DNA of 64,000 nt from Vicinamibacterales bacterium (GTDB taxonomy: Bacteria > Acidobacteriota > Vicinamibacteria > Vicinamibacterales > UBA2999), in the NCBI GenBank assembly GCA_050250875.1, contig JBFWNV010000010.1, positions 22,221-86,220 of the forward strand, read 5' to 3'. The notes under the pieces were generated by a model that was not told where the DNA came from, ran no database searches, and worked only from the letters and a program-made list of their open reading frames with translations. Positions 60,695 to 62,474 of the stretch are shown in pieces (position 1 is the stretch's first letter; every line of letters starts with the position of its first letter). The position numbers and the translations under genes were made by a program.

Positions 60695-61947
60695 CGCAGC
60701 ACCTCCTCGTACGAGCCGATGGCGCGGCCCAGCCGCACCCACGCCAGGCCGAGTTCGACGTCGGCCACAATCACGTCCGCCTGCACCGTCCACAGGGCCT
60801 GCACGGCTTCGATCACGCTCACCAGCGGAAGTTGGCCGGCGGTGTAGCCGGCGACGGCCGGAGCAATCGCCATCCGCGCTCGCGGCAAGACGTTCGTGTT
60901 GAGTGCGTCCTGGCGGTCGCGCCACGCCTGAACCTGATTGGTCGCCGTCGCGGCCTCGCCCTCGAACATGCGCGTCATCGCCCGCAGGTCGGCTTCGGAC
61001 ATCGCGCGCATGGCTTGGGCTTCGGCGACGCCGGCGCGCAGCTTCCCGCGCCAGATCGGAAGGCTGAGGCCCACCATCGCCATCCAGCCCTTGCCGTCGG
61101 TCATCGTGTAGGAGGGACCCGTGCGAATGGTGGCCATCGGCCGATACATGTCGCGCATGACCTGCACGTCGGCCTCGGCCCGCGCAATCTCGGCGCGGAC
61201 CGCAGTGAGTTCCGGGCGCTCGATGAGCGCCGCGCGAAGCGCCGGCCAAGGTGGCGGAGGCTGCGTCACGACAACGGGCTGCAGCGGCGGCAGTGCCGTG
61301 TCGGCGTCGAGACCAAGGCTGGTGGCGAACATGCTCTCAGCTCCTCGGACCTCGCTCACGAGGGCGCGCGCCAGCGCCTCCAGACGGGCGACCTCCACTT
61401 CGGCGCGCAGCACATCCGACTGCGGCGCCGTGCCGGCGGCATATCGGGCGTTCGCCGCGGCGACGACGTCGCGTGCGAAGGCGACCTGCTCCGACAGCAG
61501 CGCCTGCGTGCGCTGCCGCTCCTGCAGCATCAGGAACGCGTTCGCGGCCTGCAGTCCGACGTCCAGGCCAGCACGGCCCGTCTCGGCACGGAGCCGGTCG
61601 ACGTCTGCAAGCGCAGAGGCGCGCCGATGGCCGCGGATGCCGGACAGCGGGATCTGCTGTTCGATGGTGACGCTGACGTCCGCCCCGCTCCACATGAACG
61701 GCAGGTGGTCGAGCGACGGCGACACCATCGGATCCGGGAGCGCCGACACGATGGTCGGCCGCTGCTCTCCGGCCCGAGTTCGTGCGCGCGCGGCGTCGAT
61801 CTCCGCCCGTCGTTCTCCAGCGATGCGCACGGCATCGACGAGCCGGAGTGGCGACGGCAGGGCCCCCGGTGTCTGGGCCAGGGCCGATGACCCGGCAGCC
61901 AGGATCGCCAGCGCCAGGCCGGCAACCCGCAAGGGCGAGCGAACCAT
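60691..61947 (-). CDS. TolC/CusC family outer membrane factor
   Basis: Signal peptide, ALPDPM, ARYAAG..PQSDVLRA, LSLPIW; GGAGG RBS. Confidence 0.88.
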   Translation of the reverse strand: MVRSPLRVAGLALAILAAGSSALAQTPGALPSPLRLVDAVRIAGERRAEIDAARARTRAGEQRPTIVSALPDPMVSPSLDHLPFMWSGADVSVTIEQQIPLSGIRGHRRASALADVDRLRAETGRAGLDVGLQAANAFLMLQERQRTQALLSEQVAFARDVVAAANARYAAGTAPQSDVLRAEVEVARLEALARALVSEVRGAESMFATSLGLDADTALPPLQPVVVTQPPPPWPALRAALIERPELTAVRAEIARAEADVQVMRDMYRPMATIRTGPSYTMTDGKGWMAMVGLSLPIWRGKLRAGVAEAQAMRAMSEADLRAMTRMFEGEAATATNQVQAWRDRQDALNTNVLPRARMAIAPAVAGYTAGQLPLVSVIEAVQALWTVQADVIVADVELGLAWVRLGRAIGSYEEVLR

Positions 61948-62091
61948 GATCGATTCCTCCGGATCTGATGTGCCGGGAACGTCGGCCCCCCGGCGTGACC
62001 GCGTCAGCCAGAGGCCGGACGTGGCCGGCCGGTCACACACGCCGAGCCGCCGTGTCGCGGTCACGAGCCGACCGCCGGCGGCCAAGGCGTT

Positions 62092-62436
62092 TCAGATCCG
62101 GAGAGGAGTGACCAGGGGTCGTTTCAGGTGGGACGGCAGCTGTGCGCGAGTACCTGGCGAGCGCGGCGTGGCCACAGGTGCGACCTGGAACGCCGCGTGG
62201 GCCATGAGGGTCGCGTCGTCACCGCGACGGCGCGACTCTTCTCTGAGAGCGGCCGAGTCCGGCACCGCATCCCGGCAGGTATCGTCGCTGCCGATGCCGG
62301 TGACGGCCCCGGACTGCTCGTGATGGCAGCTGGCCGCTGCCGCGGCGACGGGGTCGCACCACGACAGGCAGACCAGCGAGGCGCTCGGCCCCACCAGAAG
62401 CATCACGACGACGGGCACGACAGCGGCGCGAAACAC
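62092..62436 (-). CDS. Second Cys/His leader protein, upstream of cusCBA
   Basis: GTG start inferred; hydrophobic N-terminus, CLSWC, CHH, tail RPLVTPLRI*; same architecture as 52142..52615. Confidence 0.65.
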   Translation of the reverse strand: MFRAAVVPVVVMLLVGPSASLVCLSWCDPVAAAAASCHHEQSGAVTGIGSDDTCRDAVPDSAALREESRRRGDDATLMAHAAFQVAPVATPRSPGTRAQLPSHLKRPLVTPLRI

Positions 62437-62459
62437 GGCAACACCCGCACAGCCCAGGG

Positions 62460-62474
62460 GCAAGAGGGGTGCCA
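62460..62474 (-). promoter_or_regulatory. Sigma-54 (-24/-12) promoter of the leader-cusCBA operon
   Basis: Minus strand TGGCACCCCTCTTGC is an exact TGGCAC-N5-TTGC match. Confidence 0.65.

Follow-up and report, generated by a model that had tools for sequence, protein, structure and literature searches.

The window analyzed in this study, a 64,000-nt stretch of the genome of a Vicinamibacterales bacterium (assembly GCA_050250875.1, contig JBFWNV010000010.1, positions 22,221 to 86,220 of the forward strand), contains on its minus strand a small open reading frame (ORF) that precedes a cusCBA-type copper-efflux operon. The results of our analysis revealed that this leader ORF belongs to a real, unannotated gene family, whose products share a Cys/His motif, a nearly invariant L-R-[ILV] ending placed directly at the stop codon and a fixed distance between the two, and that in the window the last codons of the ORF are predicted to lock the Shine-Dalgarno (SD) sequence of cusC in a long-range RNA helix. 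According to the explanation that we favor, whose chances we put at about even, the ORF heads a sigma-54-driven copper-efflux operon as its first cistron and would function as a cis-acting metal-sensing leader in the manner of CutF and CruR. The parts of the leader ORF and of the helix are given below, each with the evidence by which it was placed.

62092-62436, minus strand: leader ORF of 114 aa plus TGA, with a GTG start (sequence, conserved start of the relatives, family searches)
62377-62436, minus strand: signal-peptide-like N-terminus, codons 1-20, composed of MFR, a hydrophobic stretch and GPSAS (consensus MFRAAVLSIVLxLAxGPxAxLLC and AlphaFold2 helix)
62275-62370, minus strand: Cys/His motif CLSWC...CHH...DTC, codons 23-54 (alignment of 70 members)
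62095-62130, minus strand: last 12 codons, HLKRPLVTPLRI, corresponding to the family C-terminal motif LExRPLxTxLR[ILV] (tail counts, n = 143)
62092-62104, minus strand: 5′ arm (anti-SD) of the predicted long-range helix, formed by the last codons of the leader and its stop (sequence, folds, shuffles)
61948-62091, minus strand: structured spacer of 144 nt with predicted internal hairpins (folds)
61956-61968, minus strand: 3′ arm of the predicted helix, with the cusC SD sequence GGAGG (61960-61956), 8 nt ahead of the ATG (sequence, folds)

A preliminary description of this locus had reported an ORF of about 114 aa with the motifs CLSWC and CHH and the ending PLVTPLRI, located 144 nt upstream of cusC, and all of these features can be read directly on the minus strand. 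The length agrees with a GTG start at position 62436 and a stop at 62094-62092 (protein MFRAAVVPVVVMLLVGPSASLVCLSWCDP...SCHH...DDTC...KRPLVTPLRI), but not with the start given in that description (62474), which contradicts 114 aa and falls in the sigma-54-type promoter described below. As regards the choice of the start codon, an ATG or GTG is present exactly 22 codons ahead of the first Cys in 43 of the 51 family loci analyzed. The N-terminus appears to be shaped like a Sec signal peptide, with one basic residue, approx. 12 hydrophobic residues and then G-P-x-A-S, and would presumably be cleaved. The AlphaFold2 model obtained with the family alignment (pLDDT 64, pTM 0.21) is confident only in an N-terminal helix (residues 3-27), beyond which no globular fold is predicted. 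The possibility that the product is an anti-sigma factor was dropped, because the protein has no cytoplasmic domain.

An exhaustive HMMER search detected 383 cluster representatives at E ≤ 1e-3 (60 of them at E ≤ 1e-10), most of which are 113-121 aa long and match the leader protein end to end. The preliminary description had proposed a profile of such ORFs, and what this approach recovers is a family of proteins, encoded upstream of copper genes, whose Cys/His motif includes CxxxC and whose L-R-[ILV]-stop is nearly invariant. No Pfam or NCBIfam model matched the window protein when the two collections were scanned. In particular, DUF2946 (PF11162) gave no match with the window protein at E ≤ 1 and with none of 70 family members at E ≤ 10, and its model found nothing in the genome of the window or in 12 genomes from its bacterial family, including three (G024, G063 and G163) in which the leader family is present. 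The ESM Atlas lists, at 0.94 and with a low shared-feature count, a cluster that is 23% DUF2946, which we treat as a lead only. The suggestion that the tail is not RAPP and that the ORF may represent a different class was therefore right: the family is not DUF2946/RAPP, its tail reads RPLxTxLR[ILV], and its Cys motif is CxxxC and not CXXC.

The family is present in 54 of 194 genomes of the taxonomic family to which the window belongs (59 hits in 16 of 41 genera). In an even sample of the phylum 6 of 401 genomes were positive, including that of the window, and within the window's family the proportion was 5 of 12; none of the 388 sampled genomes outside this family gave a hit, which is not proof of absence. 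Of the 59 hits, 51 loci were analyzed. Those left out were L010 (from the unpublished genome G066, in which no downstream start is clear), L020 (G071), L025 (G068, with a match that extends only to model position 99 and a fusion to another frame) and five partial hits (G154, G166, G117, G012 and the second hit of G092). Locus L023 (G122, an unpublished genome) is included in the counts of 27 and 51 loci and is outside the counts of cluster representatives. In L020, which derives from the genus of the window, the stop after ...PLRI has been lost, so that the frame runs on for 34 codons to the next stop, and the start of a CusC-type gene lies 55 nt past that later stop, behind GAAGGAGGAG; this locus is a natural variant that could reveal what the leader stop contributes.

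Alignment of 70 members gave the consensus MFRAAVLSIVLxLAxGPxAxLLCxxWCxPxxAAAxxCHH...DxC...REDxRR...RPLxTxLRI, in which C23, C27, C54 and R113 are invariant and R3, C37 and L112 are conserved in at least 90% of the sequences. Spacing was counted in 143 of the 149 listed representatives, the remaining six having been dropped since the tail or the motif was missing at the expected place. The distance from the last Cys of the motif to the C-terminus has a median of 65 residues (interquartile range, IQR, 64-66; range 58-67), and that from the first Cys a median of 96 (IQR 95-97). The approx. 45 residues that link the Cys motif to the tail are poorly conserved, and this linker thus varies in sequence and is fixed in length.

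The tail itself is the most constant part of the protein. The endings of the 149 listed representatives are LRI (118), LRL (17), LRV (6), LRT (3), RRI (1), IRI (1) and others (3), i.e. xR[ILVT] in 146 cases; among the 143 used for counting, Arg is found at position −2 and I, L, V or T at −1 in all, Leu at −3 in 141 and Pro at −8 in 113. The codons behind these residues vary freely in the 51 loci. The penultimate Arg is encoded by CGA (18), CGC (14), CGT (7), AGA (6), CGG (4) or AGG (2), the Leu by CTC (34), CTG (8), CTT (7), CTA (1) or TTG (1), and the stop is TGA (34), TAA (12) or TAG (5), so the invariance of the tail does not reflect a constraint on the RNA and is maintained at the level of the peptide. 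Rare Arg codons (CGA, AGA and AGG) occupy this position in 26 of 51 loci, compared with 16.4% of 1388 Arg codons in the downstream genes and 25.6% of 363 inside the leaders (p 1.4e-8); among cluster representatives, 19 of 38 have such a codon (p 1.7e-6). The leader of the window has CGG at this position. No description of an LRI-stop leader was found in the literature on DUF2946 and copper-related upstream ORFs (uORFs), on CutF/CutO and on arrest peptides (PepNL), in which the motif itself was not a search target.

All RNA structures reported here are predictions. The preliminary description had noted that the last codons of the leader are complementary over 12 nt to the segment at the cusC SD sequence, and this complementarity is exact: CTCCGGATCTGA (62103-62092) is the reverse complement of TCAGATCCGGAG (61968-61957), with GGAGG directly after. 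In the predicted folds the helix comprises 13 bp and closes the spacer. When a 191-nt region of the minus strand was folded, as had been suggested, the long-range helix was present in both the minimum free energy (MFE) and the centroid structures (−105.6 kcal/mol, z −4.52; none of 200 shuffles was as good), and it persisted in both structures of the 522-nt predicted transcript (z −3.46). None of the 441 other 53-nt windows of the locus equaled the leader tail in pairing with the SD window, and the tail/SD energy of −24.0 kcal/mol was reached by none of 200 shuffled tails (mean −11.8). The spacer gave no Rfam match at E ≤ 1, and we found neither a sigma-70 promoter nor an intrinsic terminator, the spacer containing no terminator-like site. 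An inner perfect 10-bp stem (62056-62065 with 61994-62003), which the same description proposed as a clamp of the spacer, exists as complementary sequence, but it appears in neither the MFE nor the centroid structure, and local hairpins form at its site instead.

Pairing of the SD was then compared across the family, with the stop-proximal window defined as −30..+23 and the SD window as −20..+3 relative to the next start codon; these starts were located by means of a rule, which agrees with manual calls in 27 of 27 loci. Duplexes between cognate tails and SDs have a mean energy of −17.3 kcal/mol, versus −15.2 kcal/mol for non-cognate pairs (38 cluster representatives), and the cognate mean was reached by none of 50,000 permutations (1 of 20,000 when 27 loci were used). 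In ensemble folds the mean probability of pairing between the SD core and the stop window is 0.59, versus 0.39 after dinucleotide shuffling of the stop window; 40 of 51 loci exceed their own shuffle mean, and in 14 of 51 the observed value is reached by at most 1 of 25 shuffles.

The conservation of the stem in homologous loci, which the preliminary description treated as decisive, is of a particular kind: the SD is preferentially paired with stop-proximal mRNA, but the helix formed by the LRI-stop codons, which beats shuffles in just 5 of 51 loci, is not family-wide. The idea of the LRI-stop codons as a conserved anti-SD was dropped on this figure, synonymous variation showing that the tail is maintained at the level of the peptide, and the exact LRI-codon helix is special to the lineage of the window. 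By eye, the partner segment shifts between loci and may be formed by the RPL codons, by the LRI-stop codons or by a stretch 4-15 nt past the stop. Since the partner shifts in this way and the LRI-stop helix beats shuffles in so few loci, the recurring feature, as far as these predictions indicate, is not one helix but the sequestration of the SD by mRNA that would be covered once a ribosome stands at the end of the leader. As regards covariation, also proposed earlier, RNAalifold applied to 9 loci with short spacers recovered only a 6-bp core helix (CCACCU/AGGUGG) with one compensatory pair. The flanks of this core differ between loci and look complementary by eye; the program recovered no pairing of the flanks. 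The first 30 nt past the leader stop are pyrimidine- and C-rich (C 40.5%, G 27.7%; mean of 51 loci), and anti-SD-like CCUCC, CCACCU or UCUCUC is often found 1-10 nt past the stop. A conserved post-stop hairpin was also considered; strong hairpins are common, but their median z is −1.0 and only 11 of 51 have z < −2, and they were not used as evidence.

The leader is followed by a gene on the same strand, 49-211 nt downstream, in all 51 loci. This gene encodes a CusC-type outer-membrane efflux protein (OEP) in 22 loci, an unnamed periplasmic family in 25 and a multicopper oxidase in 2; one further gene is truncated and one is unassigned. The multicopper oxidases have RRxFLR N-termini, and the truncated third locus opens with the same N-terminus. 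In the window the ATG of cusC is at position 61947, 144 nt past the leader stop, and the operon continues beyond cusA with genes for an ECF-type sigma factor, a YHS-domain protein and a P1B-type ATPase with YHS and HMBD domains. The annotated features downstream and upstream of the leader are as follows.

60691-61947, minus strand: CusC-type outer-membrane efflux protein, 418 aa (Pfam OEP, 1.8e-35)
59369-60700, minus strand: CusB-type membrane-fusion protein (MFP), start approximate (Pfam HlyD_D23, 8.2e-65)
55914-59399, minus strand: CusA-type RND pump, start approximate (Pfam ACR_tran, 4.1e-206)
55334-55930, minus strand: ECF-type sigma factor (Sigma70_r2 and r4_2)
62460-62474, minus strand: sigma-54-type −24/−12 promoter, TGGCAC-N5-TTGC (sequence and 36 of 51 loci)
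L018:666-1352 (minus), L005:2009-2701 (plus) and L059:755-1438 (plus), with 22 further loci: examples of the unnamed periplasmic family

The promoter, which was absent from the earlier account of the locus, lies 24-38 nt ahead of the leader start codon. The sigma-54 consensus is TGGCAC-N5-TTGC, with GG at −24 and GC at −12. The pattern TGGCNN-N4-6-TTGC occurs at the same place in 36 of 51 loci, compared with approx. 0.03 expected per window, and in 43 of 49 loci the distance from the beginning of TTGC to the start codon is 22-34 nt, compared with 4.3% expected. With the usual spacing between the −12 element and the transcript start, the sequence predicts a start of transcription near 62448 and hence a 5′ untranslated region of about 12 nt. 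Because the sigma-54-type promoter is conserved in 36 of 51 loci, the copper operon is probably switched on by an enhancer-binding protein; the genome contains 26 Sigma54_activat genes, none of which is encoded on the contig of the window.

The members of the unnamed periplasmic family look secreted, are mostly approx. 230 aa long (some are shorter) and have no Pfam match; by eye they apparently consist of two helical repeats (...HFTALADRY...AKRH...HC..L...). In 3 of 8 extended loci (L035, L037 and L040) the gene is followed by ORFs of OEP, MFP and RND size, called by size, and the family could represent a new periplasmic metal-handling protein. The ECF-type sigma factor of the window, encoded between cusA and the genes for the YHS protein and the P1B ATPase, has a Cys-rich tail (...CGTCAEHGCLDCSCGKR), which seems to resemble that of the copper-sensing CorE-type sigma factors of Myxococcus.

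A search for close homologues of the leader returned, besides the window protein itself, only one relative (80% identity). Library X1, a wastewater metatranscriptome available as contigs, contains a record (record 3, 368 nt, 94% identical) that spans window positions 62092-62437. This contig corresponds exactly to the leader ORF, from 1 nt before the GTG through the last base of the stop, and carries an Illumina adapter at its upstream end. Among the 16 listed of its 21 differences, all are in codons 30-102 and none is in the first 29 or the last 12 codons; a hand count assigned 7 of them to third, 5 to first and 4 to second codon positions. X1 has no coverage of the promoter, of the spacer or of the 5′ part of cusC, which is uninformative in their case. 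As such libraries may contain DNA, the cover of the ORF does not show transcription.

Taken as a cis-acting leader, the ORF would work in the following steps: (i) the N-terminus of the leader would bring the nascent chain to the Sec translocon, (ii) the four-Cys/His motif (residues 23-54) would arrive in the periplasm at a time when the ribosome tunnel still contains the last dozen residues (RPLVTPLRI), a geometry that the fixed distance of 64-66 residues from the last Cys to the end fits, (iii) in free mRNA the cusC SD would be locked in the 13-bp helix with the last codons and the stop of the leader, (iv) a ribosome positioned on L-R-I-stop would cover the anti-SD arm, setting the SD free and making initiation at cusC possible, and (v) the dwell time of this ribosome would set the translation of cusCBA. 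The dwell time would in turn depend on the conserved tail, on the Arg codon, which is frequently a rare one, and presumably on whether the chain binds metal or is exported. We infer, then, that the chain is exported, that ribosomes pause at its end, that metal affects this pausing and that a paused ribosome acts in the direction of opening cusC. Pausing at LRI-stop and its dependence on copper are suggested indirectly, by the invariance of the tail at the peptide level, the fixed length of the linker and the rare Arg codons.

Several observations weigh against this explanation. L-R-I-stop is, to our knowledge, not among the known arrest motifs, and it needs no Pro. An exported, Cys-rich peptide of 90 aa could be a working metal-binding protein. 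The stop window ranks within the best 5% of windows of its own locus for no more than 10 of the 51 loci (9 of the 38 clusters; median rank 0.29), the LRI-stop helix is not conserved, beating shuffles in five loci, any GC-rich RNA pairs heavily, and the post-stop hairpins are unremarkable. Finally, the loci of related genomes are not independent of one another.

The signal-peptide-like N-terminus, the four conserved Cys with His and the constant position of the gene at the head of copper operons would also be expected if the product were simply a small copper-binding protein of the periplasm that acts in trans, as an accessory or chaperone of the CusF kind. The SD helix would then represent plain translational coupling, by which cusCBA is made only once the first cistron is translated, and for which no arrest is necessary, any passing ribosome being able to open a long-range helix; the LRI tail would serve the finished protein as a signal for docking, sorting or degradation. 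The hydrophobic-x-hydrophobic C-terminus would be reminiscent of ligands of PDZ domains or tail-specific proteases. We nevertheless consider this explanation rather unlikely. No fold is predicted past the N-terminal helix, the 45-residue linker is free in sequence but not in length, and conservation is strongest on the last three residues before the stop, where the rare Arg codons are also found. Moreover, proteins of three unrelated kinds are encoded downstream of this leader, a finding that speaks against a single specific docking partner.

The tail and the fixed distance would equally suit a transcriptional attenuator of the CruR type, in which pausing of a ribosome on the final leader codons would prevent the action of Rho, or pausing of RNA polymerase, within the spacer, so that the leader would control transcription read-through into cusC and not access to the SD. 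CruR works in this way (PMC9426467), and the C-rich stretch directly past the stop would be in keeping with it. Over the whole spacer, however, C (33%) is about as frequent as G (31%) and the RNA is heavily structured, unlike a rut site. The lack of an intrinsic-terminator-like site and the SD-specific, cognate-specific pairing, which is the prediction of the translational model, make attenuation improbable in our opinion. Least probable of all is that leader and helix are unrelated, the helix of the window having arisen by chance or within the lineage and having no regulatory role. The small number of loci in which the LRI-codon helix beats shuffles is in line with this, as are duplexes of approx. 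−15 kcal/mol that form with random windows in GC-rich DNA. Against it stand the helix of the window, which beats all local windows and all shuffles and persists in the fold of the full transcript, and the cognate-specific SD pairing of the family, unmatched in 50,000 permutations.

One further reading may be considered, which we regard as possible although somewhat doubtful: the combination of L-R-[ILV]-stop, RPLxT and a 65-residue ruler leading to a periplasmic four-Cys site may constitute a new, proline-independent nascent-peptide pause at the termination step, in which metal outside the membrane controls how long the ribosome stays on the stop codon. Such a pause class would gate the translation of copper efflux pumps, multicopper oxidases and the unnamed periplasmic family in one soil and wastewater lineage. 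Metal-sensing nascent peptides (CutF, CruR) are a recent finding, so far tied to DUF2946 and proline-based stall motifs. The present family would show the same logic arising from unrelated sequence, with another stall motif placed at the stop codon, and would extend it to a different phylum, probably Acidobacteriota according to an ESM Atlas lead, and to genes preceded by a sigma-54 promoter. A name would also be gained for several hundred small genes, so far unannotated, that adjoin copper-resistance operons in metagenomes, and the invariant Arg, the fixed-length linker, the rare Arg codons and the 13-bp SD helix would provide experimental handles.

The family shares with the termination-stage arrest peptides TnaC, SpeFL, MsrDL and PepNL (PMC11890864; PepNL ends Ile13-Asp14-stop) the feature that conserved residues abut the stop codon, which would place the stop codon in the A site during any pause; in sequence it shows no likeness to them. 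All three stop codons occur in the family, and a particular release factor is therefore not implied. Fujiwara et al. (2024; PMC10987492) described classes of uORFs with a motif directly at the stop, including NAP-stop and DGMK-stop, and four criteria for candidate arrest peptides; the family shows three of these characters and differs in the kind of downstream gene. In contrast to the Sec/YidC-monitoring arrest peptides SecM, MifM and VemP, its downstream genes are concerned with copper efflux or oxidation, and not sec or yidC, and its motif is unrelated to theirs.

CruR (Bp2923, DUF2946) of Bordetella pertussis acts through Rho termination, and copper relieves the arrest (Roy et al., mBio 2022; PMC9426467). 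It carries CXXC and, three residues before its end, RAPP, with a Cys-to-tail distance of 45 and a motif spacing kept to 1-2 residues. Like CruR, members of the family are putatively exported uORFs that head copper operons and carry a Cys motif as well as an arrest-type motif at the C-terminus, and the distance from Cys to tail is likewise conserved to a few residues (IQR 64-66), although its absolute value differs from the 45 residues of CruR. Unlike CruR, it has CxxxC with two further Cys, and LRI directly at the stop in place of RAPP.

A close parallel is CutF of Rhodobacter capsulatus (Ozturk et al., mBio 2023; PMC9973294), which combines a signal peptide and CxxxC with a stall motif at the C-terminus and a stem-loop that shields the SD; CutF-like proteins, which are also treated in bioRxiv 10.1101/2025.02.05.636593, are most often encoded ahead of OEP/CusC genes and sometimes ahead of multicopper oxidases (PMC9973294). 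Our family has no sequence match to DUF2946 and is found, among the genomes sampled, in one bacterial family only. The CutF tail is proline-rich, whereas that of the family is LR[ILV]-stop, and the anti-SD of CutF is placed in a local stem-loop, whereas here it lies in or next to the last codons, across a spacer of 49-211 nt. The PP filter of the CutF study would drop the window protein, as its last 15 residues, PSHLKRPLVTPLRI, contain no PP; 32 of 143 relatives contain it and would pass, and some family members may already be in the CutF-like lists of that study. In size and spacing the window ORF is CutF-like, with 114 aa and a 144-nt spacer. A putative signal peptide is suggested by the pattern of MFR, 12 hydrophobic residues and GPSAS together with the AlphaFold2 helix (residues 3-27). 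Like CutF, the family consists of ORFs of less than 150 aa with an apparently Sec-type N-terminus, CxxxC and a conserved C-terminal motif, located on the same strand immediately upstream of copper genes, and the SD of the next gene is predicted to be shielded by mRNA pairing, through the 13-bp helix in the window and a corresponding bias throughout the family.

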